Assembly (NCBI GenBank): GCA_003344405.1
Contig: NOWV01000017.1
Span: forward strand, 62,001 to 126,000
Direction: 5' to 3'
Source of the DNA: Trichoplax sp. H2
Taxonomy: Eukaryota
Length of the DNA: 64,000 bases
Both the position numbers and the translations under genes were made by a program. The notes below the pieces were generated by a model, which was not told the origin of the DNA, ran no database searches, and was given only the letters and a program-made list of their open reading frames with translations. Positions 5,282 to 58,600 of the stretch are shown here, piece after piece (position 1 is the first letter of the stretch; the number at the start of each line of letters is the position of its first letter).

Positions 5282-6715
5282 TTATAAATTTTGACAGATT
5301 GGAATAATTTTAGGATTATGTGGATGCTTCTTCATATACAAATCAACTATCCACTGCTGGAAATTACCACCACCAATAGTAATTAAGATGTCAGCATGAC
5401 TTAATATTTGCATTTCGACAATAGCCGTCGCTCCATTATCTCTTAATATAGCACGGTCATTTTTATCCACGAGACTAGCGTTGAAAACATGGGGCTGACT
5501 CAATTCAGCTATAGCCATATGGTATAATTCTTTCTTCTTTTCCAATTTTCTTTCCTGTTCATAATATTTATTATAAATAGTATCTGAACCAGAATCAGCA
5601 AGATCAGTGGATAAAAAGGAACGATCAATGTTATGTTGTTGACGTAGGTAAAATAAATTACGATTTAATACTTGCATACAACTTCGTAGATATCGTATTC
5701 CAGCTTGAGAAGTTTTACCAATTAATAAGCGTTCAATTCTTCCATGAACAGCAATATATCTTGGAGAGAGATAACGTTTGATATATGTCTTAGCAATACT
5801 GATCAATTTTTTATTATGTGGGAATAGCGATGGTTTAATGCGCTGATTGCGTGTCAAATTAAACAAAGCACGATTAGTACCAATCCCTTTCCACTGTACA
5901 AAACCAATACACTTTGTATCTTTTAGAACTTGTCTTTTAAATTTTTCAACTGATTGAAATTTAGTTGGATCAACACAGATATAACGTTTAATATTAAAAT
6001 CTCCTAGTTGTTGAGCAATATTAGCATTGGCAATAAATGGACAGAATGTCCAACCCTTTTTCGTTTTAGCTAGCCGATCTTTAACCTGTTGGAAAATTCT
6101 GTTATTAATTTTGTACCATTTCTTAGCATCTTTAGTATTGCCTTGAAAGATGAAATGGATTAAGACATCTAACGTTTTATTGCATCGACTAGTTAAGTAA
6201 TCATAGGATACCAAGGGTGAATAACCATGTTGTTGCAAGACTTGGTTAACACCTTTAAGATCGAAATAAAGTGACATATTAAAATAGCGAATATCATGCA
6301 ATTTTCGATTGCGACCGATGCCTTGTGGTACACCAGACATTCGTGAATGGTGGACATAAGGAATGACTGCACTACCGTCGAGTAAAGTAGCCAAGCTAGC
6401 TAAAGATATAAAGTTAGTTGTTGCCATTGCAAGTTGTTCAAAATAACGATAACTAAAAATAAGACGAACGCAATCTTGTGAATGTGGAGCAATGTGGTGT
6501 TGCTGTTGTTGTTGCTTTGGTGTTGTTGATTGGATAACATGTTGCAATTGGCAAGATAACATTTTATTCACGTTGTCGTTGTCGCATTCTAGACCTGTTG
6601 GCTCGATGTCAACGAAAATGGAGGAATTTAAATAGATGAAAACGACCCAAAGTGCTGTAGCTATTGTTGCGATGAATAATAGCAATGTAGCTACTTTCTT
6701 CATTCTAGTAGCCAT
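5282..6715 (-). CDS. GDP-fucose O-fucosyltransferase-family (O-FucT / GT-B) type II membrane protein, single coding exon
   Basis: 477-aa uninterrupted ORF with an N-terminal TM anchor (VATLLLFIATIATALWVVFIYL) and a stem containing poly-Q. Motifs YIAVHGRIE, FLSTD and AIVEMQILSHADILITIGGGNFQQWI resemble fucosyltransferase motifs I-III. Probable 5'-UTR intron at about 6719-6957. Confidence 0.75.
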   Translation of the reverse strand: MATRMKKVATLLLFIATIATALWVVFIYLNSSIFVDIEPTGLECDNDNVNKMLSCQLQHVIQSTTPKQQQQQHHIAPHSQDCVRLIFSYRYFEQLAMATTNFISLASLATLLDGSAVIPYVHHSRMSGVPQGIGRNRKLHDIRYFNMSLYFDLKGVNQVLQQHGYSPLVSYDYLTSRCNKTLDVLIHFIFQGNTKDAKKWYKINNRIFQQVKDRLAKTKKGWTFCPFIANANIAQQLGDFNIKRYICVDPTKFQSVEKFKRQVLKDTKCIGFVQWKGIGTNRALFNLTRNQRIKPSLFPHNKKLISIAKTYIKRYLSPRYIAVHGRIERLLIGKTSQAGIRYLRSCMQVLNRNLFYLRQQHNIDRSFLSTDLADSGSDTIYNKYYEQERKLEKKKELYHMAIAELSQPHVFNASLVDKNDRAILRDNGATAIVEMQILSHADILITIGGGNFQQWIVDLYMKKHPHNPKIIPICQNL

Positions 6716-8469
6716 CGTCTAAAAGTAGGAATGATTGCAACATCAATGTTAGAGTCAACTGCTAGGACCAACAGATAACTGTTAATTTATTATCACTTGG
6801 CTCATATGCTGTAAGTATAGGACGATAGCGTGGAGTAACAAAGTAAATTGTTTTCACACAGTTAAAACAACAATACCAATTTAATTTGACATCAAAATGA
6901 AATGACGTTTGTGTAGAGTTTTGTTTGAAAAATTTTTTTTTCTTCCACTTTTCTTACTTGGCTGGAAAATCGATGATGAAGGTATCGTCAATTTGTTGTC
7001 GTGGTCGAAAATGGATCAATACGCGTGAAAAGAATGATGAAGAAGGGGATGAGCGTTTTAATGAACTTGATCGATGGATCGCAAGTAGAAAATAACGTTT
7101 CATTATCCAAACATGCAAAGCCAGTATATCTTAATTTCTATCGTTTAAATGAATAATAGGTAGAGACAAGGCAGTTGTTGAATAGTTGTATTATTTCACT
7201 AGCATTAAACTGTAAATTATTAATTACTCTTTAAATGAGAATCATTAGGAACTAATTGACGTGGGTCATGATGGTCAACTAGAATAATCTTTTAATATCG
7301 ATCAAGTTGTATTATTTTCAAATGGACATTCCGTACCAAATACAAGGTAGAACTGACATAATAGACATTTCTCGATGACTGACTAGCAATGCTAGACAGT
7401 TTAAACTTCAATCACTTTTAAAGGGGTGGCAGTCCTCCGATCATCTAAGGTTGATTTCAACATTCACTCTCTCTCTCCAATGGGTTTGTGTTTGAAACTC
7501 AACGCTCTTCTACCAAGTATAGCGTATTCCTAGCATGGCTCTCCATGGAGTAAATGGCATATCGGTCTAGGATTGAGCTATTGTAAATTACAATCAGCTA
7601 TTATTGTCTTCATCTTTATTCATTTTTATTTTATTTGTTTTGTTTACATTTTTTTCTCTCCCTCCCTCCTCTCCCTCGTCTGTGGTCCAGTAGAGACCGT
7701 AATAAGAGAGAAAGGGTCCTAGGTCCAGCTCTCACCCCTTTCTTTTGTTTACAAGGTTGACACGATTGCATATTTCCTTATGGTACTATAGAGAAGGTAC
7801 TGACGCACAGCGGGGGTTCATCCGAGTACAGTCGTGCCGACGCTATTGTCCTCTTCTATTGTCTTCATTGCCTATAAAGAAAGTAAGGATGGACTTGACG
7901 ACGGATACTATGCTGAGGAATGTATTGTGTCACGCTATTGTGGAGGTCAATGGCACTAGTAACACCTAACCCATACAGCCATTGAATGCGATCCACTTGT
8001 ATTATACCATAAGTTGCAACTGCAAGTTCAGGATAATACTGGAGGAGTGTGCTGTAATGTACGTTTGGGGGGATGTGTTAACGGTATCCACCTGACCAGT
8101 GAGACCACCCACCCTTCCACTTCCATCGCTGTCAAGAATTTTTTTTTTTATTTTCTTCTTTCTTTACTTTCAACTCCACAATTATTCGATCTAGACAATA
8201 AAATCAATCAATCTACCCACTACATCAATTGTCCTCCAATTTTTGTTAGGATTATAGTTTGGTTCGTATTCTACACAATCGTTGTGAACTTTTTACCAAC
8301 AATACTTTTGGACTTGCAACACCGATCCATCATTCTACAATTGGAAGGCAATATCCAATCTTTGCCAAGTGACAGGTGTACACTGTATAGTACAGTACAG
8401 TACTGTTTTTCCCACCATCGATACTAGTCGACTACAGTACAATAACTGGACATTATCAATACAGTACAG

Positions 8470-13820: not shown

Positions 13821-14757
13821 CACAAATTCTGTGTCCAGTTTTAGTCTTGTCGCCATGGACTAGGCAACCCCGGTGTCACGGAGTCGCGGGTATACTTCTG
13901 TGAACTACTATTACTACCAGCAGAAGGTCATCCGTCCGTACAGTCGTCACACAAATTCTGTGTCCAATTTTAGTGTTGTTGCCATAGACTAGGCAACTAC
14001 CGGTGCCACACACTCACGAGTACACTACTGGGGTCTACTATTACAGACCACCCGAAGGTTGTCCGGACGTACAGTCGTCGCACAAATTTTGTGTCCAGTT
14101 TTAGTGTTGTTGCCATAGACTAGGCAACTCCCGGTGTCACGGAGTCGCGAGTATACTACTGTGAACTACTATTACTACCACCAGAAGGTCATCCGTCCGT
14201 ACAGTCGTCACACAAATACTGTGTCCAATTTTAGTGTTGTTGCCATAGACTAGGCAACTCCCGGTGTCACGGAGTCGCGAGTATACTACTGTGAACTACT
14301 ATTACTACAACCAGAAGGTCATCCGTCCGTACAGTCGTCACACAAATTCTGTGTTCAATTTTAGTGTTGTTGCCATAGACTAGGCAACTACCGGTGCCAC
14401 GCACTCACGAGTACACACTACTGGGGTCTACAATACTATTCTTACAAACCACCAGAAGGTCATCCGTCCGTACAGTCGTCACACAAATACTGTGTCCAAT
14501 TTTAGTGTTGTGGCCATAGACTAGGCAACTACCGGTGTCACGAACTCTCAAGTAGTGTACACTACTATTAACGACCGTTAATAATACGGACCACTAGAAG
14601 GTCATCCGTCTGTACAGTCGTCGCACAAATTCTGTGTCCAGTTGTAGTGTTATTGTTACCATGGGCCAGGCAACTACCGGTGTCATGAGTCACGAGGACA
14701 CTACTCTTAACTATTTTGACGGACTACCAGAAGGACGCCCGTAGTCCTGCTGTCGTC
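13821..14757. repeat. Tandem array of 7 x ~130-bp units with internal inverted repeats
   Basis: Units begin cacaaat at 13821, 13950, 14081, 14211, 14341, 14482 and 14624 (periods 129-142). The conserved core is gaaggtcatccgtccgtacagtcgtcacacaaattctgtgtccaattttagtgttgttgccatagactaggcaact. Confidence 0.95.
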
Positions 14758-15285
14758 ATAGGGATTAGCGATTGCGCCATTTGAAGTCTTTTACTCGGAC
14801 TAATTTCTAAATACATTTCTTTATCCTATTAAATCAATAAATTAAATATAGTTGATTAATTTGCTACTGTACTTGAAAAGTTCTAACAGCTACAGGCGTG
14901 AATATGAACTATCCTTAAAACAACAAAACGTGTTTGCCAGAAGGAAAGACGGATGATCTGTCTCTGGACAGGCCAATCGAAGGTGGAGGAGGGATTCGTT
15001 AAAGTCAATCACACAAGTGGTCTTATGCTAAGTTATGCATAGTAACTACTGTTAGTAGAGTGGACTTAAATTAATGTAGGAGTTAGCGACCTAAACTCTG
15101 ACGTCAGGAAATCAACATTTTTTAGCCCTGTCAGGGGTCTCTATTTTACGGCTCTACCTAACAACGATAGCTCATGCTAGCGTATTGAATCTATTCCTAG
15201 CAGTCTAGACTAAATAAGGGAATCGATATTGATAATACTGTATAAACAGTATTAATGCCCTGCCTTGCCGTTTAATGATTCCAAA

Positions 15286-18200
15286 ATGACAACTGAAAAC
15301 CAAGTTGTCCATGCCTTGAAAGAGATGATAGGAGGAAACTCCTTGCTTAAAGTGGGAAGAAATGTAAGTGATTGTCATCATACCGGGTTACTATAGTAAG
15401 GAAGTAATGCTATGATCGACTATGGTATCATTCTAACTCTACTGTATGTGATAGAATAGCGGACTTGGATTAATTAACGGTCGACTGTGATAGTCATGTA
15501 CCGTACATCTATTAATCTTATCTCTGGTGCTATCAACCTTAAAAATTGAATGACTAGATTAAAGCATTGCCTCAAGCATCATGGTACAGTTATTTCAACC
15601 TTATCATGATATAAATTCAATCACCCTATTTATCGACAAAGGCAAAAACATCAGATAATCAATCATACTTTTATTTTATGCCAAGATATAAGATTTCGTT
15701 TTGTATTCTGTTACTTGTGTCATATACTGCAGATAAAGGCACCAACCCTAAACGAGGGTTGTAACCTTCAAATATAGCTACCGCCCTAGTCTGCTGTCAG
15801 ATATGTCTTTCTCGATCCACTGACAAACAGTCGGATTCCAGTACTGACTGACAATCTCTCATCGTCATGAGCTCATAGTAACTATAAGTCTTTTCTAGGC
15901 CAAACCACAAAATATAAATCTTGCTGAAAACTCAATCAATTTATGGCATAGCTACGTAAACATCAATACTTACATAATACTAGCTATTAAAACATACAGT
16001 ACAACTGTCTAATATAAACTAGGGTCTGCTAATGGTGTAAATGCAGATAATGTCGATATCGCTAAAGTTTCAACATGTGTCACGACTATAATGTAAAATT
16101 TAATTTGCAATAATCTATAATCAAGGTTTCGCTTACCTTGAAGGTATAGAGGAAAGATCAATTTCTACATTACTGTAGGCTACAGTACAATAGCATATGG
16201 CTAAACTTTATGCAATCTACAGTAAACAGTATGTGCTCGTACAAGGAAACAAATTAAGAATAAACGTTCAACTTCAAATGAATAAGTAAATAATTCCAAT
16301 AGGAGTTATTTCCTTAGAAATCAAACCACTTTATTTCAAAAATAGAATCTAAAGTGATCTATTGGTTAAATAACCTGCTTATTGTACTAGATATCAATTA
16401 ATCATCGATAAAGGAATAACTCTGACTTAGTATACTGAAAATAGATATAGGTGTATGTTGCAATCTTGGTTTGGAAACATAAATTGTGATTGCTATCTAT
16501 ATAATCTATAGTAGTAGGCCCTATAACGTACGTACATATTACTATTAGAATATGAGTATGCCTAAGTATGCCACCAAAAATAAACGAGTCTACAGAATTG
16601 CAAATTATCACATAGGAGTAACAAGAATATTCTAATTCTGAAAACATCTATACTTTAAAACTTATATTGAAACGCAAATTAATCAGATCACCTTCAGCCC
16701 TAATTTCGGCTGTAACCAAATGACCTAATATTTGCAATACCATTGCGTCTACCTACTATGGAATGAGATTACCATTTGAATAGGCGATGAAGACAAACCT
16801 TCTATATAATAGATTAAATCGTTTACACATTGTACACAGTTATTCAATATGCACGCTCAGATTACGCACATGTACTGTATCTTATTGAAGCCTCAGTCTA
16901 AATATTCGTGTCATAGTTTCTATAACAAAAATTGAAAGTACTGTAGTCAATCTCCTGTGTGCTACTCACTATTTACATCAATTTAGTGCTTTATCATTTA
17001 ATTTTCTGCAATTATTCAACCATCTTGATATTTATATTCTATAAAATGTATACACTTATGTTTCTAGGGAAAAGCGCATTTTAGGCATTTTAGGCTAGCA
17101 AAAGGTAAGTTCAGAGTTCACGCAATTCATGTAATACATAACAATGTAAGGAAATTAATTAATGTCAAGTAGTGCAAATTATAGAGAAATCTATAAGTGC
17201 AAAGTACGTACATCATCGAGAGAGTCGGTTTGACTTTTTTCTTATTTTCATACTGACTTTGATTTCTTAAATTTATAGACTTATCTGGCATCAGTTGGAG
17301 TTCTCCACGCAAAGATAAACAAGAAACTATAATCCTAGTTTCGCAAATGGATTCTCTATTATTAGGACAAAAAACAAAAGTTTTTCTAGCCAAACCAATG
17401 CCAGAATTAAAGGTTTCTTTCTTTTATTAATATATCAAAGTGATAACTCTACATCAAGATATAAACTAATTATTATTATTAATAAAACTATCGTCTTCTT
17501 TTTACGAGATAGACTCTGTCCTTCTCATTACTGTATTCGGATAGTGAAGGCTTCCATCGTTCGCTAGATATAGTATGCCAAAAGCAACGAGAATTCGATA
17601 TATGGATAATAGGATTACAACAATTAATCAATGGAATCGACGATAAGTCAATTACAACAGAATTATTCCAAGATGCCAAGACAGAGTTAATAATTAATAC
17701 AGAACAATCAGTAGACGATTTGGTAATACTTAGCTGACCCTATATTGCATTTTCCATCATCCAGACATAATTTAGAAAATAAATAATTTAAAAATCTTCA
17801 AATTTTTTTAGGTCGAACTTGATCATTTAATCGTTCTTAATTCTGCACAAATTGATCAATCTGTCTTCGGTGTATACACCTGGGGAAGTGGAATAAACGG
17901 TGCATTAGGTCATGGAGAAGATATTGATATACCATCTCCTAGAGTTGTTGAGGCTTTGTTAGCATATAACATTAAAAGATTAGCTTGTGGCTTACATACA
18001 GTCTTCGCATTAAACGGTATATTTTGTAATAATGATTTAACCCTATTGTATTTGATGTTTTACTACCTTTTGAAAATAATAATTAAGGCTTTACTTTCAA
18101 ATATTCGAGCAGAAGATGGCAAGGTTTATTCCTGGGGCTTAGGGAAATATGGCATTTTAGGACAAGGAAATCTACGTAGTAGATTTGCACCCCTTAAGAT

Positions 18201-20063
18201 AGCTAGTTTTAAAAGTAGTAACGTCATCGACATTTCCTGCCATGAATTACATGCCGCAGCTGTCACATGTTAGAAAGAGAGATTTTTACTTCGAATATAT
18301 AAATATTCTTAAATATTATTCATGTTATTTTAACAAGGCTTGAGAAACTTATAAGCTGTCAAAAATTTTAGCTTCAGGTGAACTTTACACATGGGGTAAA
18401 GGTTCTGAAAATTTTAATCGCCTGGGATACTTATGCCAGAATAAGCAAACGAGTCCGGCTTTGGTTCATTCTCTTTCGGCATATACTATTTTCAGTGTTG
18501 CATGTGGATACAATCACACTTTGGGTTAGTACGTATGAAAAATTTATTGTCCTTGAAACTATTGTGATCAACTGCAACGACATTCACATCATATCTGATC
18601 AAAACGTATATATACAATAATTACTAAATGAGTCTGTCTGCTAAGTTAGTCGTAATGTTAAATGTTAAGTACTTGTAGCTGTCGCACAACTAAAAATACT
18701 TATAGATACTATTACTAAAATTAATTAATACACTTATCAATTGCATCCTGATAGCTGTGACAAATACAGGTAGCGTATATTCGTTTGGCGATAACTCAAA
18801 CTCACAATTAGGAGTTGGTGATACTGAGCCGTATGCCGAGCCTCAATTAGTCACTGTATTAAATGATGAAAACATTATCAAAGTTGCATGTGGTAAATAT
18901 CATTCTGCTGCGCTATCAGGTATTGTATGATTAATTATCGATGATAACGTAATACTATCAATACTATTTTAATTAAGCTACGTAAGCACTTATAACTTAA
19001 ATTTAAATTTGGGTTTTACTTCAATTTCAATCTCTGTCCTAATTTTGTTTTAAATTACTTGATCAATCACAGCAAAAGGAAATTTATTTCTTTGGGGCCT
19101 TGGTGACGACGGCCAATTGGGTCTAGGTAATTATAATCTTTCAACCGAACCCACTATACTTCATATAGGAGAAAAGAAAGCTAAAGTTATGGATGTTGCT
19201 TGCGGAGATCTCCATACATGCATACTGACAGGTATACTTGTTACATTTAATATGTGAAACGAAATTTTTATGACAGCGATTTTCTGCAAAAATAGTATCT
19301 GTAAGCAACTGTAGTATAGACTTAAGCACCCAATCGTGTATCATCGTTCCTAAATAATGGAAATTTTTCTACATTCTTGTAGTCGGTGGCCTTGTCTACG
19401 CCTTCGGTAGTAATATTTATGGACAAATAGCTGCACCGAGTATGAATAAATTTCACCTTCCTTACCGCATTAGTTTCAATACAAGTAAAAGATTTGTATC
19501 AGTGTCATGCGGATCTTTCCATTCCGCAGCTATTACAGGTATTTTTATATTGCTAATAGACATAGACGTAATTTGACGTAATAATTTTAATCAAATACGC
19601 TTTCTGATCTATATGGAATTTCTAATGGAAATAGTTACAAATAGTAAAATACTACTATTAGTTTAAAATTTCTCCATCCAATCTTACGTCGTTTCCTCGA
19701 AAATTTTTAATAATAGAAAACGGTAAATTATATGCATGGGGACTGGAGACCGATGGAAGATTAGGCTTGGGGGATTGTAAACAAAGGTATAGTTATAAAG
19801 ATACAGTTTTACTTAGCAGTCAGTTTTATATGTTCAAGGTAAACGTTTACTTTTATAAATACACAAGGAAACATTTTATAGCGCCACTTGTGATCATTAA
19901 TTTTGATTATCCTATTTTGTGCAGATCTTCACCGACGGAAGTGGAAGGATTTCGTGATAAGAAGATAGGTCGTATAGCCTGTGGTAGTAAACATACAGCA
20001 GCGCTGATAATTCTTTCAAGTTCTGCGGACAAAAAGTTCAAATCTAGTTGGCGAACTACATAA
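15286..20063 (+). CDS. PH-domain + 7 RCC1-repeat protein (PRAF/RLD-like N-terminal architecture); multi-exon
   Basis: Exons 15286-15363, 17068-17104 and the next two splice in frame to ALKEMIGGNSLLKVGRNGKAHFRHFRLAKDLSGISWSSPRKDKQ..LLLGQKTKVF..SFSLLYSD..RSLDIVCQKQREFDIWIIGLQQLI, a PLC-type PH domain. Seven RCC1 repeats follow (VYTWGSG..GALGHG, VYSWGLGKYGILGQG, LYTWGKG, VYSFGDNSNSQLGVG, LFLWGLGDDGQLGLG, VYAFGSNIYGQI, LYAWGLETDGRLGLG), and the stop is at 20063. Confidence 0.85.
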
Positions 20064-21141
20064 AACGATACTTTATATATGAAACGAAATTAATTTTTTT
20101 ACAATATAGTTTAAACTTTCATACTAAAACCGGTTTTATCGAATATGATAGTAATATCATTTACACCTATATCTACTAACAAATTCATCACAAAGTACTC
20201 ACACTTAGCAAAATTTATCTCTGTAAAGCTCTATAATTAATGCCTTTCTTTATTTTAAGTATCTCAATCAAATTATCTACTCTGTGTTAGATATTATCGA
20301 TATTTATCATTATTTGTACTAGTATTTATGAGCAAATTTATTGCAAAGTACTAAAATCATTTCAGGTTTTTGAAAGCTAGAAGGAAAATTCTGGATTGAA
20401 CACTATGCTTCATTGAGCAATTTTAATCAAACAATGAGATGAGCATATACTGTTACATGCAATTGCAGTGTTGGCTAAACCAATTTCTTACTTCACTGTT
20501 TGCAGATACAGTAGTTTTGCTGTACATAAAATTTTACTGTAAAATTCCAATTTTTGATCCATTACATTCAATAAATTTCAATGGGACAAAAGATAAATTA
20601 CGTCGTATACCGTTTATATTTTTCGTACTATCTGTTTTATTATACATGTGGAATTAGTTTCGTTCGTTATTGACTCTTTTCAGGGAACAAAAGATTAACA
20701 TGATATCACAGTCATACTGAGTAACAAAAGTTACATTATACAGTAGTTTGATTCTCCAGCATCGATTGCAATCCATTCAAAACTTAAGACATGAACAAAC
20801 GACGAACAATATTCGTCGTATAACTGTTATCGTACATGTAAAATAAATCATGAAGACACCTGAATTTAAAGGTTATATGTCATCGTTTACTGTGTATAGA
20901 AATAATATTATCAAAGAACAGCACACATCAATTACGCCAAATATCCAGTTTGAATTTCCGGTAGTACAGCATATTAGTTTTTGCACAGTTCTTTGTAAAT
21001 TAAATTTATTAATGATGAGCATTTGATTAGCGCATTTCCAATAAATTGAATTATATAGTACACTTTTAAAATGATAGCTCTAATGCAATATCATCTTATC
21101 ACCAAATAAGTGTCACTACATTTATATTTCTTGCCCATTAT

Positions 21142-24100
21142 TTACTCTTTTCTTTCATCATCTTCACCTTCACTTTCATCGCCGACCAAAGCCGCGAATT
21201 TACTTTCTTGACTAAATACCTACCCAATATTTAAGATACATGCTAACTTAGATGGCACTTCAAAATCTTAACGGTATACGAGTAAAATAATCATGTGTTA
21301 CAATAATAAATATTAAAGAATTTGATATCTTCTAACCGGTTTCGGTGGTTCTTCGTACTTCTTAAGCTCCACAGGCCTATAGGGTTTCCTACCCCTACCA
21401 CCTCCTCGACTTCCTCTGCCACGACCTCTACCACCAAATCCTCTGGAGTTTCCATCACTGCTGAATCCATATCGTTTATCGCTACTTTTGTCATCTCGAC
21501 TATTATCATCGTCCTGATCTTGATCTGCACTTGTTGTCTTATCAGCTGCTTCCTGATCATCGTCTTTACTCGTCTGATCTTTAGCAACAGCTAAGCGTTC
21601 TTCAATTTCTCGCTCTTTGGCTGCCGTATCAACCGGCCTGGCTGAACCAAAGATTGACGATGAACGGTTGACTTCTTCCTCTTTATTTTCTATAGGTTTT
21701 GATCGAGGTTTCAAATTGAGTGCCCGTCTTTGTGGTGCATCTAGAATTTTGTGATATTAACGGTTAAACAATTAAACAGTATTTACGGTTATTAGGTTAA
21801 ATTGTAGCTGGTGACATCTATAGTAATACAGCAGATATTCATATGAAGGCATAGTAGTCATATTAGGGTTATCCATTAACCTTTCTCTTTCTTTTCTTCG
21901 TAATCGCCCTGCTTAGTGTTATCGCTACTTTCAGCTCTTTCTGTATCTCTTCTCACAGAATCATTGTCCTCCCTTGATTGCCTACCACCATCTACATTAT
22001 CAACATCATAATTACGTCTTTCGTCTCCATTTTCAAATCTGGATGATCTAAAATTATCAAAGCCACGTCTTTTCCCGTCATCCCCATTATATCGTGAAGA
22101 TCTACCTCCAAAACCACCTCTATCGTAGTTTCTTCTTCCGCGTCCGGAAGATTCAAAATCATTATATCTACGGTTTCCACTACCAAATCGATCTTCTCTT
22201 CCGCGAAAACTGCTCCCTCCATCATTGTATCGACTACCAACACCAGCAAATCTGTCATCGTCACGATCATATTGTCTCCTATTCGATCGAAAGTCCTCTG
22301 TTGGTGGTCCGGCGCGTCTCCAATTATCGCTATCGGTGCTTCGTTCACCACGATCGTATCTATCATGATGTGATCCTCTACTCCCTCTGTCATTGAAATT
22401 ATTTCTGTCATTATCACCTGTATGATTAGCGAAAAACAAATGAATTACAAGGTCAATTTTTGACTTACCACATGAACTAACAAAACAACAAGACAAAGAG
22501 TACATACTAGATGGGAAAATACAAATATAGACAGTATATAAATAATAAATCGTTGTTAAGCATACGATGTTAAGATTTTTAAGACATAACTTTCGATATA
22601 CAGTAATGATTTCATCAGTTAATGGATAAAAAAAATTTTATTTATTGTACTAATAATAATTAATCTTTTAATTAATTAGTCTATAAACCTTACCTCCAGC
22701 AATATCCACACGGATTTTACGATTTTTCAGTAACTATATGGGGTAAATGAATAGAAGATATAAGTTTTGTTTAGAGATATAGGATTACATATAGATTACT
22801 TTTTAATTAAAAATAATGAAAAAAATCATCAAGTTGTCAGTTATGATAACAACTATTTCCTTTGAATATGTCAAAACGGCATGACATACTGTATACGCGT
22901 TCAGTAATAGGGGAGAGTTATGTATTGTTAAGACCACCATAATATACTGACGCGCGTATAGTTTAGTTAATGATCAGAAAGTCAAGTTGAAGGAATAAAG
23001 TACTTTAAAGATACAGTAGGTCTGTCAAATTAGCAAGACGCCCATCATTTTGAATATTCGAATTCACCTGATCATTTAGTGACATCGCATTAACTAGTGA
23101 TTCTAAATCTTCAAATTCGGTATATCCAAATCCTCTTGGTCTACCATCCGTTGTGCCTTTGGGTAAGCGAACAGAGTTTACCTACGTATAACGAAAATAG
23201 ACAATCATTACTTGATTTATCACATCATTCCAATATCTACAAGTATCGTAAGAATCGATCTACAATGTCATTTATATTGAAGAGAAAGCATATATATTCC
23301 TCTTGTTAACAGAACATTACATTATATACGGTAGTCAACGTTATACAATGTAATTAATTGGCTGCAAACTTCTATTCCCTATCACCATCACTACAGTAAG
23401 ATGTTAACAAGATTACAAGTAAGGTAGTTGTGTATTTCAATCCATTATTTCTGATCAATGCGTAAGGTAATCAAGATGATGAAGTTCTACTTCACAGAAT
23501 GTCAGATAGATACTGTAGTCGATCATTTGCAAAACAAGTAGAGTATATTGAACTGACCTTGCTATCCTTGAAGAATTGAGTAATATCTTCTTCAGTCACA
23601 TCATAAGGAAGATTAGCAATGTAAGCAGTAAAAGGTGGCTTAGTAGGAAGTCTACTCCTATCGATACCAGCCAAGGCACGAGCAGCTTTTGGAGCTGTTG
23701 GTAGCATGGATGTATCAATGGTGGGCTGACTCCGCCTATCTGTAAATGAACGATGATGACGACGATGGAAGATTAATTTTGTATCAAGATGTAGCCATTG
23801 AAATTGGTGAATAGTGTAGAAATGATGAATGTTAAAGAGAGTAGAGCACAATCGAGGGAGAAAAGTCCATTTCTAGCAGGTTAGCGCTAGAAAGATATGG
23901 ATACTGTATAAGACTATTTTTTTCTATCTACCAAGTACGATAGATAAGTATTTGAATATTTAATGCATAGCATCGCAATCCTAGATTATAAAGACTGCAT
24001 CATGCCGTGTCAAATTGATCGACATTGATGAGAAATTTGTAATTGTACTGGTATGTATCTGAGTATAATAAATCAAGTTATTGTTGTACAACACAGTTTA

Positions 24101-24463
24101 TAGGATAAAAATAGGCCTATCCACATGTCCAATCTAAGAAGGAAGTCGAACATGAAATGACCGGGTAGATAGAATCAAGTTTTGTCACCTTCATAACCAC
24201 GGGAATCGTCTTTTTCAGACCAATCACTGGTTTTTCGTTGTGTTAGAATATTGGCAACTTTGCCATCATTTCCATCAGCAAGAAACTCGGTCAAATTGAC
24301 CGTTTTGCCTTTCATTTTTTTGGATTTCTTGCCTATAAGATCAATTTTTATGATTTATTACATATAATGTATCCAATAGACAAGGATAAAGTGAATTTAT
24401 TAAATACAAGTCATTCATATTGATGAAATTGCTCGATCAACCTGATGCCGGTGTAGTAGCCAT
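21142..24463 (-). CDS. EIF4B: Eukaryotic translation initiation factor 4B; multi-exon
   Basis: MATTPASG|KKSKKMKGKTVNLTEFL.., LPTAPKAAR..IDRSRLPTKPPFTAYIANLPYDVTEEDI (RRM), a D/R/Y/G-rich region, LNLKPRS, SIFGSARPVDTAAKEREIEERL and C-terminal SKFAAL..acidic tail*. All are characteristic of eIF4B. Confidence 0.93.
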
Positions 24464-25508: not shown

Positions 25509-30941
<5,433 letters not shown>

Positions 30942-49685: not shown

Positions 49686-52600
49686 TCAAGTCGTTGTATA
49701 AGTAAGCCTAAAACCTTGGCTGGTAATCACTTCATCAGATACAAAAAGAACAGTTAAATGTCTATTTGTAGTAGTGTAGACTGATGGTAAACTACTTCCA
49801 CAATATTTTCCAACTAGTTGTGCATTAGTATCTTGCCCATTATACAGTGCGACATAATCGCTATCACAAGATGGTGTCTGTTGGATATTTATAGCTGTCC
49901 AAGTGACTGTAATTTGTCTAGTGGATAGGACATCGATATTCATTGTACAAGTAGTCGAATTAGGATAGGTGAACGGATAATTTGGCGATGTAAGACTGCC
50001 AGTAGGCCCAGTAATAGTACCGCTACATCCTATAAAAAGAGAAGAAAGAGAAAATAACATTAGCTAACATTACTCTTGCTTAAGATATGGAAAAACCAAA
50101 GAAATGATCTAGTCAGCCAAACAGAATATTTCTAATATTTTTCTTTCTATTCTGCAGTTAGAGTACTTATATCATTCAGTTTGTAAAGTAAATAGAACAC
50201 GGCTAATAGACGCCCATACTATTGACCCAATTAATATGCCACTTGTAATATTGAAAATATTCCTAGTCAATTCTTTATAGTGCGCAGAAATGGTATTCAT
50301 TAGTTTTCAGTTTACACATTAGGCAAAATACCATTAAATACTGATTCATATTATTAGCTCAATCATAAAAGATGATATTAATAAAACGTAAAAAGTATAT
50401 CTTGATATTTTTTCATTTCACATAACTGAAGTATCTATTCCATTTTAGTTCATTCAGTAATTAAAGTACTGCTCACTAAACATCATTTGTTTAATTAATG
50501 TGATAATTTTAATACAAAATACTTCCGAATAAAATATACAGATATAGAATTACTATTCAGTTTATACAATACCATTAAACCTTAATTCGTACTATTGGTT
50601 TAATTAAAATAATAACTTTATACACTATCTCCATAATTTTTATCAGTAGTAGTAAAATTGACATGAGTTAGTAATATTTATCGAATTGAGTTACGATTGC
50701 TTCACTGTTCTTACCATCAAGACTAGCCATATAGGAAATATCAAATCCTCTCCTATGGAAATTTTTATCAGTGAGGAACCGCATAAAGACCGAATTAGTC
50801 GACGAGGCAAATGTAAAGGGTAACGATGAGCCACAGTATTGACCAGCTAATGGAGATGCTGCTGACGAACCATCGTAAATAGTTAATGAATCACCATTGC
50901 AATTAAACAATTGCTCCAACTCAAAATCGGTAAAGAACATAACGACAACACCGCTTGATACAGTGATTTTGTAGGTACAATTTGCGTTGCCTAGGTAGGA
51001 TTGTGGATAATTTTCAGATACAATACGACCACCATCTCCGGTGTAAGTGAGTGCACAATCTACACGATGAAACACACAATCTGTTAAAATTCGATGACCA
51101 CAAAGGCTATACCATACTTAAATATCAGAAATAGTATGATATCATTGGACAATACTAGAGGCTATAAAGTAGTATTTAAATTAAAATAATTATTTTAATT
51201 TTTTTTATATATTAGTAAGCAAAGAAATACACTAAAGTTAATTTTTTAAATTTAAATTTATTATGCAGTTTCTTATCACTTTTTATAATACTGTATTAAT
51301 GATGAATTATAAAGATCAAGAAGCTGTAAGCAGTTAACTTTTCCGATAACTTGCCTTTAATATAATAAGTCATGTTAAAACCAGAATCAGTATTAGACGC
51401 ATCGCTTTTGAAAGACATAGTCAGCAGATTTGCAGCACTAAATGCTGGTTGAGGTGAATATTGATTACAGAATCTACCGATATTGTAAGGTCCTTGTGAA
51501 CTTATTTCCAATAAATCGATATAATCCTGATTGCAGAAAGCGCTGGGACTCATTGAAAATGATGTAAAGCTATAAAAGATTTGTTTGCCAACAGGAGCAG
51601 AAATAAAGTAGCGACAATCAGCGTAATTATTATAGTTATTGGGATAGTTTGGCGAGGTGATGAATTGTGGATTTGTAGTAGCTGTAACATTTTGACCACA
51701 TCCTATCACAAATTATAAATTTGGTGAACTTTTCAATACATTTAGCGATTGTAATGAGTATAGGTAAGTTAGCACTCTATGTTCTTTTCTTAACTTATGG
51801 TAAGTACCAACGGTAGCGAAGAAAACTATATTAATTTCTGTATTTACTAATGTAATGGATACCATTTATAGAAATATAGTAAATTCAACTTAGAAATATC
51901 GAAAAATTTTAATTTAATCGCAGTTATTATGTACACCTAAAATTGGTATAATACACAAGAAAATCACTTTAAATCAAATAATAATACTGTAATCAGTTAA
52001 ACAGTATACCTGGTACGGTTACCCACGTAGCATTGAAACCTTTCATATTAGATGCTGCATTTGTATGAAATTTAATCCACAAGCTAGTTGTAGTTGCAAG
52101 AATTGTAGCTGGCGCGGTAGAACCACAGTACTTATTCAATAATGGTGATGACTGTCGTAGCATGAAATCAAGAAAATATAATCTTGTAAATCAAGAGTTA
52201 TCCTTGTCTGTTTTACGACATAAAAATCGTTAGATGATAGCATGCCAAAAATTGAATATACCTGATATGGGCCATTTCTGATTTCTATATAATCATTTAC
52301 GCAAGCGCTGGATGATTCGAGAGCAAAGTCAGTAAAAGTGAGTGAGATACGTCTTCTGAATCCAGATGACTGGATTTTATAAATACAATTTAGATTGGAA
52401 GCGTAATTGGATGGGTAACCAGGTGACTGGAAAGTACCATTTTCCGTATTAAAATCTTGATTACACCCTAGTTGATAGTAAATTACAGCAATTAGTTAGT
52501 TAATGATTTCATCGAAGCTATAGTACAACTGCAAAGTTCTTTATTGTATATAGAATCAATAAAAATGTAAATAAACAGTTAAAATAAAAAATAAAGCAAT

Positions 52601-55600
52601 ACAGGGTACGGATCAATCGCATTTAATGATTGAAGAGACAAATTGCATTACCTAGACCGGAAGTATATTGGGCAGCAAAGCCACTAGCTTCCGTAGATTG
52701 ATCACTGTGGAAATGTATGTACATAGAATTACCAGATGATATAATTTCACCTATCGAATTGTTACCACAGAATTTGCCAACTAAAGGTGCAGATGAATTT
52801 AATCCGCTTCTGATTTCTACGTAATCATTTTCGCATAGAACACCTGATGCGACGTTAATAGATGCAAACGATAGCGTAATAACATTTCCAGTAGCAACAG
52901 TGATGGTGTAATAACAATCTTGTTCAGGTCTATAATTGTTAGGGTAGTTAGGCGTTGTAAAGGTTCCACTTGATGTTGTGTAATGATAATTACATGCTAC
53001 CAGAATCAAAGAAAAAATTAAAAACTAAGCATTACATGCAGTACTAATAAAGATAATTACTAATAATAGCTACATTGCATAAAAATTGAATAAACCAACA
53101 AATGATCATTAAATTACTGACTTACAAGCTTGCCAGGTTGCTTTGAATCCGGTAAGTTGTTGACTGCCATCGGAGTGGAAATGAGCGTACATTACATTAC
53201 CAGTAGTAGTTATCTTACCTGGCACATTTGTTCCACAAAATTTACCTAATAATGTATCATTAGACCTTGCTCCATCCCTTAATTCTATATAATCGTAGAG
53301 GCAATTTGCATTAGCTTCCAAACCATAGCTTGTTGGACTAAACTTTAATGATATCGTTTGACCGGGCGGACCAGTTATTACCCATCGACAATCACGCCTT
53401 GCTGGATATTGATTAGGGTAATTTGGGGATTGGATAGTACCATAACTACCGTTGAAACTACCACCACAGACTAAAATGATTTGATTAGTTTAAAATCAAT
53501 TTTCAATACTAATATGGAACTTTACACGATCACAATAGAAAATATTTACTATTCTTAACAGTAAAAAGGTAGACAGTACCTGTGTCATAAAATATAATGA
53601 ATCCTCTTCCAGTTACGTTAGCGTTAGACGAAAATACTAATTTGGCCTTATGGGTAGGAACTAAGAACGGCTGAGGAACTACCGAGCCACAAAATTTAGC
53701 TAATAACTTGGCATGGACATGAGTGTCATCGTAAACAGCCAAGTAATCGTTAGCACAATTGGGTGATGACTCCATATTGAAAACGAAAAATTGGAGTGAA
53801 ATATATTCGGACTGAGCGGTAGTAATAATCCAAGAACATTCCGTACTAACAGGGTAATTTCTTGGATAATTAGTTGAATAAATGGTATTTCGACGCGATG
53901 TAAATATAGCTCCACAAGCTTCATAAGAATATTTACAGAAATGTATTAGTAATCAATAATATATCAACCGATAAGCGATTCATCTAATTACCTCGATGCT
54001 GACTAGTCCATGACATCATAGTACCCGGTTTCTGAGCACTACCATCCGAATGAAATCGAATGTAAAGATGATTCTCAGATGATGTTATTGGACTTGGAAC
54101 AGTAGTACCACAAAATGTACCAAGCAACGGAGAGGTAACACTTTGGCCATTACGAACTCGGAGATAATCAACGTTTTGACAGTTTTGCTATAAATTAAAT
54201 ACAATATTTAGGATTAAACGCTCGTACAGTACCTTTGGATATTAATATTTTACAATCAATTCTTAATCGTTACCGGAAACGATAACTGATAATTAATTAT
54301 AATTTACTCGTATATATTTGCATCAAGTAAGGGCAATAAGTCTATCTCCAAAAAGAATAAAATTTAATACCCCTGCTTCCAAGTTGAAGCTCCTGAATGT
54401 CAGCGTAATAGCATTAATGAAAGGAACAGATAAAATCCATAGGCAATCGGAGTTTGCAGGATAATTACTTGGATAATTTGGAGTAGTGATATTACCAGAG
54501 GCGGCAGTAATCCTGCCACCACAACCTGAAGACATTAAAATTAAATATACTTCTTTGTAGGAACATTTCATGACAGAAAAATTCTATTTCTTTAAAAATT
54601 AGTTGATAAATCTTTTATTGTGGATAATATTAACTGACCATGCTTATAATAAACTTGGAATCCAGTATTATTGCCAGCACTATCAGTTTTAAATCTTAAG
54701 GTTAGTTGAGATCCGGTAGAAATAAGAGTCTTTGGTATGTTACTGGAACAAAACGTCCCAAGTGATGGTGAACTGGTACTAGGCCCATCAAATACCTTAA
54801 AAATATACACGTATATCAACATATAAAATTTATAAATCTTAACAATTCAAACTGCCTGAGCTGGCCTAGATACCAATTAAATGAAAAGATAGATGGGAAA
54901 CACTGTAGTTGAACGAATCTAAGCGGCTGCAGTTTAGAAGAGAGGCAGGTACAAGTACTATCTGCTTCCTAAATTGCTAACACACACGTATTGACTATGA
55001 AGCCAAAATGATTATCTTTAACAGCCTCAAATAGGAGAGTGAACTTTAAGATTTAATCCTGTTAAAAATGTACTATGTAAAGATATACACATGTATAAAA
55101 ATCGATTTGATATTGCTATAGTTTCTTATTGATATGGTGCTATGGTTAAAATCCTACATGTATCTACTGTCAATAATTATAATGATTGTATATGTTACAA
55201 TATCTAAGCAAAAACTCTATCTACAAAGAAATTATAAAATAATTACCTGAACAATATCGGTTACACATGCTCCACTATTAGCTTCAAGTCGGAAGGTAGT
55301 AAAAATAAGTGAAACGGTCCCATTTGGTTCATTAACATTCCAAACACAATCTAGGTTATTGGGATAATTTGATGGATAGTTTGGCGATCGGATAATGCCA
55401 AGGGCACCAGTAACTACTCCACCACATCCTAATCGTCGATGATTGAAGCGGTAGTAAAGTTTTTTAGCGCATTACATTGAAAGATTTTTGAACAAATGAA
55501 CAAACGAATGAAGAATACAACGATTTTAGAATAATGAGATAGAAGAGTAGAATTCACCTTATACAGTATTCGTATATTGTGGGATATGTGTATTAAAGTC

Positions 55601-58600
55601 AATATAGCAATTTTAAAATATTAATAACTACTGTAAAAGATATGAACCAATATAGTATGTTAATCAACAGGATTATAGAGTAATGATAGAAATAGTCACA
55701 ACTATGACTAAAGTTGCTGCAATAAGCGCTTTCCTCTGTCGGTTAAGGAGATTAAACATAAAATATCAAGATCATTCTAGCTAATCAAATGATAATTAAT
55801 AAGCTAGAACTATAAGGATTACTGTACAGTATATTAACTCTTAATGTGATAAATTTTAACGTCATTTTTACCTGCACCATTAGATGTATAGGAAGCGCTA
55901 AATCCACCACGGTTATCTGTTGAACCCAAAGTTGAATCGAAAACAACAATCATTCTATTACCGCTTGAAGTTGTTACAGGGGGTAGATTACCACCACAAT
56001 AATCGACATATGGAGAATCCGTAGTTGATCCACCTAAATAGACTCTAACGTGATGATTAGCAGTGCATCCACCAGAAGTTTGTGGAAAATTAAAATTATT
56101 AAATTGTAATCGCACAGCACGACCAGGTTGAACGGTGATACCCCATGTACAGCGGACATTTAACGGATATCCACCAGGATAATTAGGAGTTGTAATAGCA
56201 CCCGAAGAAGTCGTTAACGTTCCACCGCAAACTAAAGATAAAATAAGATACATTAAGACGTATATACATAAATTTTACAAATCATCAACATTATTTCAAT
56301 TGCATGATTCCAGAAATTATGTATCAGTAAAAATAGTGTCATACAAGGTCTGTTGTTTTTAAGGCGAGTGTTGAAGGGAGTAAATTTATTCTATTTTACA
56401 GCTAAAGATAAAGAACACTCAGTGGCTACTACTGCCTATCTCCTCACCAAAGTTAGTTTGGGCAAAACGAAGGCTAAATCCCTTGTTGGTAATGCTGCTA
56501 TCCGTGACGAAATTAATAAATGCATGATCGCTAGATGAAGTATAGCCAGGAGGTGTACTAGTACCACAATATTTACCAACAAGACGAGCAGAAGCATCTT
56601 TACCATCACGGACCATAACATAATCATTTGGGCAACCAACGCCACCTTGTAAACTAAAATCATTAAAAGTAATGTTCATGGTGTGACCTCTTGTAACTTG
56701 TACGACATAAGAACAGTTTAGATTGTTCTTATAATCATTTGGATAACCATTAGATCTGATTGTGCCCGATTGACCAATTCGATAACCTCCGCAGCCTAAA
56801 TTTGTATATACAACAAGTAGAACCAGATTATATTGCATAAATCGCCTCACTGGTTCAAGTACGAATTTAATTCTACATGTCAATCTATATAGATTTCCTA
56901 ACACTCATAGTATCGAATTTGTTAATTAAAAACTATCTAAAGAAAATTACGAGGCAATGCAGCATATCAGTTTTGCTATTATTGCATTATCGCTACTAAA
57001 CCTTTCAAGTATTTAAATTGTCTATGAATACTAACGTAAAAAGGATATCATAGCTATGGAAAGTTAAGTGGCTTATTATTTTGGCATGGATGGATGTCTT
57101 TAAGCCAGTATTTAAAAAGTATATCATTGCTGCACTCTAGTTAAGACTTTAAGAAGGCATACTGTGTGATAATAATTAATATCTTTCATCCACCCACTAT
57201 TCTATGAAATATTTATCTACGTATCTAAAAGCACTGATTTTTAGCAGACTCAGATATTGACTCAGGCTATGCAACCTACCGAGTGATAATGTCGCCAAAA
57301 ATCCGGTACTAACAATGCCAAAGTTAGATCTAAACTTGATATATATTGAATTATAGGTGGAAGAGACCATGGGTGGTAAGGATGTAGAGCAGAATTTGCC
57401 AAGAAGTGGATCACGCGCGGTTCGTCCATCATGAATTTCAACGTAATCGTTGAAACATTTATTCGATGTTTCTAGCGAGAAATTCTTAAAGTTGATAGCT
57501 ATATTTTCGTTGGCTGGTGCATTGATAGTCCATTCACATTCAACATTAGAGGGATAATTTTGTGGAAACTTAGGTGATGTAATATCAAATGGAGTTGAGC
57601 CGAGAGTAAATGTACCACCGCAAGCTAATTCAGAATAATAAAAAAGAGAGAAAAAACATAATAAAAGATCAAAACCGATGGCGCAAATTAACTAATCCTT
57701 TATAACTAAACAATTTTTTTAAATTAACATATGCAATTATCATGCATACTGTATTATAATACGAGTCTATCATGACATTCGATATAGATTGTAAGCAAAC
57801 TGGAGTAACTTCAAAAGAAATGATGATTTACTAACCCAATTGCTGCCCTTGGTAACTAAGCCTAAAACCAGCTCCTCCTCCAGATGCACCCGAAACAAAG
57901 CGGACAAGCAATTTATTATCAGATGATTGGATTGGCAATGGTGCAGTATCACCACAATAACGACCACCAATGATAGGTGACGATAAAGAATCGCCATTCC
58001 TAAACTCGATATAATCTCCACTACATTTAGAAGTAGTACGTATGTGGAAAGTAGAGAAAGTAACGCGAACAGTACGTCCAACAGTTTGGCTGATAATCCA
58101 GGTGCAGTTGACATTTCTGCCATAAGCACGAGGATAGCCAGGAGATGAAATAGAACCAGCGAATCCAGTTAAAGTACTACCGCAACCTATCAATAGGAAT
58201 CAAATGAAAAGTTTGAGGTGGAATCTTTTGATAAAAGTTTGTACATATCTTTTATATTGATATATAAATGCTAACCTATAGTATAAGATGCATTAAAACC
58301 ACTTTGTGGGGCTCCAAAATTAGAATTAAAAATAAGTAACATTTGGTCGCCTGATGATTGAACTGCTGCTGGTATTTGCGATCCACAGAATTTGCCTAAC
58401 GTTCTTGCAAACGGTGATGTTCCATCCATGACCGTTAAAGAGTCAGCAGGACAATTAGCTCCTCCTTCAAGGTTGAAGGAATTAAAGGTCAAGATAATGT
58501 GATTATAGGATGGGACACGAATAGACCATCTACAAATGACATTGTTAGGGTAATTATTGGGATAATTGGGTGATAGTATCATGCCAGTTGTGTTCGTTAG

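Follow-up and report, generated by a model that had tools for sequence, protein, structure and literature searches.

Does the placozoan Trichoplax sp. H2 encode a counterpart of the plant PRAF/RLD proteins and, if so, how did it come to have one? The question is raised by a locus on contig NOWV01000017.1, within a window of 64,000 nucleotides (the whole stretch of DNA that was analyzed), in which exons missed by the open reading frame track had been spliced by hand. The original prediction described the product as a PH domain joined to an RCC1 propeller, and placed it in an early animal lineage. The latter is right, as the genome is that of Trichoplax sp. H2, an early-branching animal.

The PH-RCC1 gene and its exons

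The coding region runs from 15286 to 20063 on the plus strand and consists of 12 exons (1665 nt, no internal stop codon) with a product of 554 amino acids. All 11 introns are of the GT-AG type and every junction keeps the reading frame. The hand-spliced exons are therefore real and lie where they had been placed, and all of the peptide strings quoted from them were found in the translation. The gene is not new to the databases, however, since it was already present in GenBank as RDD45256.1 (585 amino acids), under the name 'Ultraviolet-B receptor UVR8'. The coding region described here corresponds to RDD45256.1 minus one intron that was kept by the annotation.

The first four exons, all on the plus strand as are those that follow, encode the PH domain. 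Exon 1 (15286–15363; residues 1–26) contains the start codon and the first PH strand, and ends at a GTAAGT donor that opens an intron of 1704 nt; the remaining ten introns are 89–230 nt long. The basic β1-β2 stretch is encoded by exon 2 (17068–17104; residues 27–39), the middle of the domain by exon 3 (17279–17412; residues 39–83), and its last strands and C-terminal helix, together with linker sequence, by exon 4 (17513–17722; residues 84–153). Exons 2 and 3 are supported by alignment with a protein from the breviate Pygsuia biforma, and exon 3 also by tblastn with that protein. When scanned singly against Pfam, exons 1 and 3 gave no match, and exon 4 matched PH_12 at 19.1 bits, under the cutoff of 27. 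A search of the PDB with exon 4 alone returned just two chance-level matches.

The propeller is laid out with one blade per exon, apart from blade 7, which is split over the last two. The end of the linker and blade 1 are encoded by exon 5 (17812–18016; 41.6 bits against RCC1), and blades 2–6 by exon 6 (18110–18268; 55.4 bits), exon 7 (18372–18524; 39.7 bits), exon 8 (18755–18919; 62.7 bits), exon 9 (19073–19231; 51.5 bits), and exon 10 (19383–19538; 47.9 bits), respectively. Exon 11 (19717–19786), taken from the gene model, contributes the first half of blade 7, and exon 12 (19925–20063; 25.7 bits) the second half, a 17-residue tail with which the protein ends, and the TAA stop codon. All seven of the RCC1-coding exons tested in this Pfam scan (5–10 and 12, exon 11 being left out) scored above the RCC1 cutoff of 21.7. 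Scanning the locus for Rfam families and tRNAs gave no matches.

The intron kept by the annotation lies between exons 5 and 6, at 18017–18109 on the plus strand. It is 93 nt long, bounded by GT and AG, in frame and free of stop codons, and the RDD45256.1 model translates through it to give 31 extra residues, which have a pLDDT of ~ 31 in an AlphaFold2 model. These residues are missing from both the Pygsuia protein (EP00033_P002197) and the T. adhaerens protein (TRIADDRAFT_21647), and 554 amino acids is therefore the better product.

The PH exons could instead form a small gene of their own, or part of an untranslated leader, leaving a true product with the RCC1 repeats only. Both Trichoplax lineages (sp. 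H2 and T. adhaerens) have the gene, and the T. adhaerens model is indeed RCC1-only and lacks the PH exons; the length of intron 1 relative to the other ten would also fit. However, TRIADDRAFT_21647 is marked partial and skips blade 3 (exon 7) as well, and for this reason it was judged to be merely an incomplete model. The canonical splice sites and the frame kept at all junctions also argue against a gene-model artefact, and the evidence-based H2 annotation links the same exons. In addition, the Pygsuia protein, which derives from an assembled transcript, has PH and RLD regions in one open reading frame, and its alignment to the Trichoplax protein passes unbroken across every PH-exon junction, 15363|17068 included, and across the join between PH and RCC1 regions. 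An artefact of this kind is accordingly given very little credence.

Domain make-up and the UVR8 name

Pfam analysis of RDD45256.1 identified a PH_12 domain at residues 17–123 (28.8 bits, a margin of only 1.8 bits over the cutoff of 27), seven RCC1 stretches totaling 315.6 bits, and a WD40_RLD match of 289.4 bits (cutoff 150). A linker of ~ 45 residues separates the PH domain from the RLD. The RLD has the features by which the RCC1 superfamily is recognized, namely 350–500 residues with seven RCC1 repeats arranged as a β-propeller. No FYVE or BRX domain was detected in RDD45256.1 at E ≤ 0.01, neither the BRX nor the BRX_N family being matched, and no FYVE-like coding sequence was found in 20064–21312, between the stop codon and the next gene. 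The predicted architecture of an N-terminal PH domain and a complete seven-repeat propeller, with neither FYVE nor BRX, is thus borne out.

A FYVE match further downstream, at 29590–29682 (exon 29542–29712), was considered as a part of the PH-RCC1 gene and rejected, as it belongs to a separate plus-strand gene and a minus-strand RRM gene lies between the two. That plus-strand gene opens with a long open reading frame that looks like coiled-coil by eye, and its one Pfam match is the FYVE finger.

A structure was modeled with AlphaFold2 from a three-row alignment (mean pLDDT 56.8). The PH region (residues 1–171) had pLDDT values below 50, and only the propeller part was usable for a fold search. 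The modeled propeller matched the solved structures of HERC1, HERC2, UVR8, RPGR, and RCC1 with target-normalized TM scores of 0.66–0.87, the HERC1 and HERC2 RLDs ranking first (0.84–0.87; Foldseek E 4e-30). The RLDs of RPGR, UVR8, HERC1, and HERC2 are likewise seven-bladed and gave 195–223 bits by sequence and target-normalized TM scores of 0.75–0.87, while the chains of RCC1 proper, the Ran exchange factor, which is marked by a Ran-binding face with a β-wedge and by chromatin binding, were well under these at 127 bits. Closeness to RPGR, UVR8, and HERC at about 200–223 bits is as expected of any generic RLD, and these four proteins differ from the Trichoplax protein in lacking an N-terminal PH_12 domain; the Trichoplax protein, in turn, has no HECT domain.

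UVR8 is characterized by a tryptophan triad in conserved motifs of blades 5–7 and by a C-terminal COP1-binding tail. Were the database name correct, the Trichoplax protein would be an animal UVR8-type UV-B photoreceptor, and UVR8 chains are among its best solved matches (~ 205–221 bits; target-normalized TM 0.75–0.83). However, RPGR scored marginally higher (223 versus 221 bits) and UVR8 is without a PH domain. Two tryptophan motifs of the UVR8 chain 6xzm_A face D and S in the Trichoplax protein, and at the third site, where this W285A mutant chain has alanine, the Trichoplax residue is S. No tryptophan was found in the G-x-x-H-T/S motifs equivalent to the UVR8 sites; the RCC1 part has six tryptophans, each of which belongs to a blade-start WG motif or to the tail. 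With D, S, and S at the sites of the UVR8 tryptophans, the name is wrong: judged by these residues, the Trichoplax protein is not a UV-B receptor, and the contrary reading has next to no chance of being correct. Gene names in the Trichoplax sp. H2 genome are reported to come from an automatic pipeline based on Swiss-Prot matches.

A breviate relative and similar proteins in plants and other animals

The closest relative found by sequence searches was the transcriptome-derived Pygsuia protein EP00033_P002197 (615 amino acids), in which Pfam identified PH_12 (43.4 bits), an RLD, and a canonical FYVE domain (83.2 bits). RDD45256.1 aligned colinearly with it over residues 3–568 (280 bits, E 2e-90, 32% identity over 596 columns), and the PH regions alone gave 84 bits (E 4.6e-18 in a search of 5.8 billion proteins). 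The PH motifs are strongly conserved between the two, including the basic β1-β2 stretch, where K22, R25, K28, and R32 are identical. The Pygsuia protein differs by a long insert in blade 3 and by the FYVE domain, which comes right after blade 7. Given that Pygsuia has the FYVE domain, its absence from Trichoplax looks like a loss, and the Trichoplax form like a derived rather than an ancestral one.

The plant PRAF/RLD proteins also begin with a PH domain of the PH_12/PLC-like class (to which the Trichoplax domain belongs at 28.8 bits versus 27), followed by a seven-repeat RCC1 propeller. In plants, these parts are followed by a FYVE and a C-terminal BRX domain, neither of which is present in the Trichoplax protein; this is about half the length of a plant PRAF/RLD protein and resembles the front two-thirds of it. 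In the ESM Atlas, the nearest large clusters to the PH part were plant (Streptophyta) PRAF clusters (TM 0.83 and 0.82), although the separation from the PLC clusters at 0.75–0.81 is slight (0.83 versus 0.81). With the whole protein as query, PRAF-type clusters were again the nearest large ones (TM 0.70 over 465 aligned residues, spanning 21–585 and so both PH domain and propeller), all feature scores being < 0.9, a level that the tool rates as leads only. The likeness to PRAF drawn in the original prediction therefore stands for the order of PH_12 and RCC1 and for the nearest large Atlas clusters, but does not extend to FYVE and BRX.

The PRAF/RLD family has been described as plant-specific, and its latest survey is limited to green plants. 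The FYVE domain of plant PRAF has a variant basic motif that has been called unique to plants. An exception to the plant distribution is given by Banerjee et al. 2010 (PMC2837644), where an RCC1+FYVE protein of Nematostella vectensis is mentioned as the sole non-plant case in the survey; the supplement counts one metazoan RCC1+FYVE protein against 49 from plants. This animal protein, known here from its mention in the survey, differs from the Trichoplax protein in having a FYVE domain, and it is plausible that it is the cnidarian counterpart. A literature search for a non-plant PH-RCC1 protein, or for the Trichoplax gene, found no paper.

An exhaustive search of representative sequences with the whole protein gave 156,825 matches at E ≤ 0.001. 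Among the best 150 of these, 149 were proteins of 1,086–7,235 amino acids with many RCC1 stretches and one was a T. adhaerens fragment; a PH profile built from RDD45256.1 and EP00033_P002197 matched none of the 150. Word-index searches were made with three queries. Exon 4, searched among longer proteins, gave 25 candidates, of which one passed, namely the protein from which the query was taken. Residues 1–170 of RDD45256.1 gave two passing candidates of 315, the protein itself and Pygsuia. Residues 1–160 of EP00033_P002197 gave one of 213, itself, so that RDD45256.1 was missed. Since the Pygsuia query missed even RDD45256.1, the absence of other animals from the word-index searches is weak evidence.

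Origin and possible function of the PH-RLD fusion

Pfam assigns the PH domain of the Trichoplax protein to one family with PLC-type PH domains, and it could be that a domain of this type was fused with a generic RCC1-like propeller in the lineage leading to animals and breviates, independently of plant PRAF, in which case the likeness would be one of analogy. The only solved structures matched by the PH sequences were those of PLC delta-1 and PLC gamma-2, and for the Trichoplax protein itself only PLC delta-1 (PDB 1mai; residues 11–123 against 10–121), a weak match with E 0.0089 and 17.9 bits. Clusters of PLC delta, PLC eta, and PLC-like proteins are structural neighbors at TM 0.75–0.81, barely under the PRAF clusters, and PH_12 occurs in ELMO clusters of the Atlas too. 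For the propeller, the best solved matches were RPGR, UVR8, and HERC1/2, with no PRAF RLD structure among the matches, and the FYVE domain of Pygsuia carries the canonical basic motif as opposed to the variant of plant PRAF. Against convergence, Pygsuia and plants share the order PH-RLD-FYVE, which is less likely to have arisen twice by chance than to have been inherited; the whole-protein Atlas ranking puts PRAF-type clusters at the top with PH domain and propeller aligned jointly; and the solved PLC PH domains reach ~ 18 bits with either protein, where Trichoplax and Pygsuia reach 84 bits with each other. The rest of the PLC layout (EF-hands, catalytic X/Y, C2) is absent, with no PI-PLC-X, PI-PLC-Y, or C2 family identified by Pfam in RDD45256.1. 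Convergence is considered unlikely, at about one chance in four.

Had a PRAF-like gene recently been transferred horizontally from a plant or alga to a placozoan, this would account for nearest large Atlas clusters that come from Streptophyta, and for a family that the literature calls plant-specific. The original prediction had taken the many introns as an argument against this, and the eleven spliceosomal introns and host-like composition agree: the GC content is 0.39 in exons and 0.295 in introns compared with 0.333 in the window, without a compositional break. The plant-type BRX domain is missing, the closest relative found comes from a breviate and not from a plant, and the gene occurs in both Trichoplax lineages. 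Recent transfer is highly improbable.

The most likely reading is that the Trichoplax protein belongs to an old PH-RLD(-FYVE) family, as a member without FYVE. The full reading, held with a probability of roughly 0.6, is that of a cytosolic protein of 554 amino acids with a PLC-delta/PRAF-class PH domain and a seven-bladed RLD, acting as a membrane-targeted GTPase regulator, in a family of which plant PRAF/RLD is the expanded, BRX-bearing branch and from which the placozoan copy has lost FYVE. Common descent of the fusion in plants and in Trichoplax/Pygsuia is argued here from domain order and from the structure ranks in the Atlas. The ancient eukaryotic origin proposed earlier is likely to be correct insofar as the PH_12-RCC1-FYVE protein of Pygsuia and the published RCC1+FYVE protein of Nematostella point to a date before plants, but the Trichoplax form would be a derived one. 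More tentatively, and with the balance of probability somewhat against it, the PH-RLD-FYVE core may be an old eukaryotic membrane-trafficking module that was present at least in the breviate-animal ancestor, and near the root of eukaryotes if homologous with that of plants; plants would have added BRX, most animals would have lost the module, and placozoans would keep a FYVE-less copy.

The PH domain of AtPRAF4 is reported to bind PI(4,5)P2 in vitro and AtPRAF1 to have exchange activity, the RLD of PRAF1/RLD1 catalyzing exchange on Rab8a. By analogy, the Trichoplax PH domain is predicted to dock on a phosphoinositide-rich membrane, most likely through PI(4,5)P2 at the plasma membrane, whereupon a face of the propeller may serve as exchange factor or binding platform for a small GTPase from the Rab/Arf trafficking set. 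Such a protein would be a membrane-targeted propeller serving as a GEF or an adaptor. The PRAF functions cited in the original prediction, LAZY binding and polarity, do not carry over. The BRX domain of plant RLDs is reported to bind LZY/BASL-type partners, and LZY, BASL, PKS, and BG to recruit RLDs through it; partners of the LZY/BASL/PKS/BG type are excluded for the Trichoplax protein because BRX is missing, and a working route through LAZY/BASL-type partners would accordingly be closed to it.

In plants, PRAF/RLD proteins have a central part in cell polarity, PIN trafficking, and the control of gravity angle, and the placozoan PH-RLD and breviate PH-RLD-FYVE proteins suggest that the PRAF/RLD core is older than plants. 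If so, recruitment through BRX would be a plant addition, and the search for the biochemical role of the RLD propeller would turn to a conserved partner, for which the placozoan protein would offer an animal system in which to find the ancestral GTPase or ARF-GEF. What is described is an architecture visible in databases rather than a new mechanism, and the finding is for that reason given moderate weight. For placozoan biology the point is a modest one, namely one more putative lipid-targeted trafficking regulator under a misleading photoreceptor name.

Structure and annotation of the PH-RCC1 gene

The PH-RCC1 gene was located at 15286-20063 on the plus strand of a window of AT-rich eukaryotic DNA (GC 0.29-0.41 per 2 kb). 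Twelve exons were delimited from stop-free stretches and the sequence itself and were assembled by coordinates with a script, giving a spliced model of 1665 nt with no internal stop codons, a product of 554 aa, and GT..AG ends at all 11 introns. The GC content was 0.39 in exons and 0.295 in introns, against 0.333 for the whole window. The original prediction had spliced the exons by hand, and every peptide it quoted was present in the assembled product, with the start, the end and the 15363|17068 junction all exact. Blades 1-6 of the propeller were found to occupy one exon each, and blade 7 was divided over one further exon boundary. The six blade-separating introns (17812-20063) were all in phase 1 and fell at the identical point of the RCC1 repeat, a pattern compatible either with exon duplication as the way the propeller grew or with intron positions that are very old and have been conserved. 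A tandem array (13821-14734; 130-bp unit, 6.8 copies, 82% match) lies some 550 bp upstream of the start codon, and the GC content of this region (0.405 in 14001-16000) is above that of its surroundings.

A query with exon 4 returned a 100% identical protein of Trichoplax sp. H2, RDD45256.1 (585 aa; here P0001), which shows that the window is placozoan and that the gene had already been annotated, under the product name 'Ultraviolet-B receptor UVR8 [Trichoplax sp. H2]'. The sole difference between P0001 and the 554-aa model was the translation of an in-frame, stop-free 93-nt intron (18017-18109), so that the propeller gained an internal segment of 31 additional hydrophobic residues. These residues were missing from the Pygsuia biforma protein P0002 (EP00033_P002197) and from P0034 (TRIADDRAFT_21647), an older, partial T. 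adhaerens model of 330 aa without the PH exons and without blade 3, and their pLDDT in an AlphaFold2 model was near 31. According to its published description, the H2 annotation was made with Maker in an evidence-based mode that drew on transcript assemblies, and product names were taken from Swiss-Prot hits.

The tryptophans of UVR8 are its chromophore positions. In an alignment with the UVR8 chain 6xzm_A, two of the tryptophan motifs were matched to D and S of the PH-RCC1 protein, and a third position, which is alanine in this W285A mutant chain, was also matched to S. The only tryptophans in the RCC1 part were those of the blade-start WG motif and the tail. Sequence scores against solved structures were 223 bits for RPGR and 221 bits for UVR8. 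The UVR8 name is wrong for this protein; the retained intron in RDD45256.1 is an annotation error, and so is the misleading product name.

Domain architecture and the downstream region

Pfam scans were run on single exons and then on the whole of P0001. The RCC1 cutoff (21.7 bits) was passed by all seven pieces tested (exons 5-10 and 12, with exon 11 left out; 25.7-62.7 bits). Exon 4 alone gave PH_12 at 19.1 bits, under the Pfam cutoff of 27, and exons 1 and 3 scanned singly matched no Pfam family. When the whole protein was scanned, PH_12 reached 28.8 bits over residues 17-123, the seven RCC1 stretches together scored 315.6 bits and the WD40_RLD match scored 289.4 bits, with no FYVE or BRX family at E<=0.01. 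The architecture first proposed, a PH domain fused to a seven-repeat RCC1 propeller with neither FYVE nor BRX, is thus borne out, and the identity of the gene is clear.

A tblastn search of the window with P0002 gave no match after the PH-RCC1 stop codon up to 21312, and therefore the protein ends 17 residues past blade 7. The sole FYVE match in the window, at 29590-29682, was rejected as part of the PH-RCC1 gene because it belongs to a separate plus-strand gene and a minus-strand RRM gene lies in between. The FYVE gene (27468-30859, plus strand) consists of a long ORF from 27468, a canonical FYVE exon (29542-29712; 56.4 bits) and more C-terminal exons. No Pfam family other than the FYVE finger was found in it; by eye the long ORF looks coiled-coil and the gene resembles the FYCO1 type. 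The convergent RRM gene (21313-24354, minus strand) has its RRM split over exons 23005-23181 and 23492-23872 and carries a long arginine/glycine/aspartate-rich (RG-rich) tail, and looks like a candidate eIF4B/eIF4H-type factor.

Proposed relationship to plant PRAF/RLD proteins

In published work, PRAF/RLD proteins are called plant-specific and their architecture and variant FYVE motif unique to plants, and a 2026 preprint traces RLD homologues within green plants and algae only. A 2010 census (PMC2837644) gives a single case of RCC1 with FYVE outside plants, in Nematostella vectensis, and its supplement counts the combination in 1 metazoan versus 49 plant proteins. Literature searches turned up no publication that deals with the Trichoplax gene or with a non-plant PH-RCC1 protein.

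The N-terminal 170 residues of P0001 were compared with 5.8 billion proteins in the 321-1024 aa size range, and two of the 315 candidates passed: P0001 itself and P0002 (E 4.6e-18, 84 bits), a transcriptome-derived ORF of 615 aa in the breviate Pygsuia. P0002 comprises PH_12 (43.4 bits) followed by an RLD, with a canonical FYVE domain (83.2 bits) directly behind the last blade. The two proteins were colinear throughout the length they share (280 bits, E 2e-90, 32% identity), and the alignment continued without a break across each of the PH-exon junctions as well as the junction of PH and RLD. Against solved structures, both PH domains matched PLC PH domains only, at ~18 bits (1mai for both, with PLC gamma-2 additionally for P0002), compared with 84 bits between each other, and they are therefore far closer mutually than to those PLC domains. 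Basic residues of the beta1-beta2 region were also conserved between Trichoplax and Pygsuia. Word-index searches were insensitive, as the query P0002 did not recover P0001, and the output of an exhaustive whole-protein search was dominated by giant multi-RCC1 proteins. These giants, very many of which are in the representatives library, outscored every single-propeller relative; those among the matches listed (P0003-P0152) are up to 7,235 aa long with 6-30 matched RCC1 stretches each, and a PH domain was found in none of these listed matches.

The ESM Atlas contains a model of P0001, which was used for cluster ranking. For residues 1-135, the nearest clusters by structure were two Streptophyta PRAF types (TM 0.83 and 0.82), followed by PLC delta, PLC eta and PLC-like clusters (TM 0.75-0.81). 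For the whole protein, Streptophyta PRAF types were again nearest, both by features, where all scores were below 0.9 and serve as leads only, and by structure, the best match having a TM of 0.70 with 465 residues aligned between 21 and 585. AlphaFold2 was run on three sequences and gave a poor model, with a pLDDT of 56.8 overall and under 50 across the PH part; its propeller gave target-normalised TM scores of 0.66-0.87 with the RLDs of HERC1, HERC2, UVR8, RPGR and RCC1.

The best reading of these data is that the Trichoplax protein belongs to a PH_12-RLD(-FYVE) family and lacks the FYVE domain. The family occurs in a breviate and also among non-bilaterian animals, where at least one phylum and probably two have it. 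In domain class and order it agrees with the first three domains of plant PRAF/RLD proteins, whereas the plant proteins carry FYVE and BRX and the Trichoplax protein neither. The protein is a PRAF-like core in an animal. The original prediction had also proposed an ancient PRAF-like module, and this interpretation is supported in part, notably by the PH_12-RLD-FYVE protein of Pygsuia; that the plant proteins share an ancestor with it is what we infer from the order of the domains and the Atlas ranks. Alternatively, a PLC-type PH domain may have been joined to a generic RLD independently of plants, PLC domains being the only solved-structure matches of the PH domain and the next Atlas clusters, but with PRAF types ranked ahead of them such an independent fusion appears the less likely of the two.

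Under the preferred reading of a PRAF-like family member, a phosphoinositide would direct placement of the propeller via the PH domain, and the propeller so placed would act on, or scaffold, a trafficking GTPase. This role is likely because, in the plant literature, the PRAF PH domain is described as a PI(4,5)P2 binder in vitro and the RLD of PRAF1 as able to catalyse nucleotide exchange on Rab8a, and because the basic residues are conserved. The BRX recruitment route is plant-specific and cannot apply to the Trichoplax protein.

Other features of the window

A single 478-aa ORF (5282-6718, minus strand), which is free of interruptions and begins with a hydrophobic stretch, is unusual amid the intron-rich genes nearby and matched no Pfam family at E<=0.001. 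At the other end of the window, a large gene (50668-63640, minus strand) encodes one CUB domain per exon; CUB was detected in three of three exons tested (95.7-116.9 bits), and at least 8 further ORFs showed the same pattern by eye.
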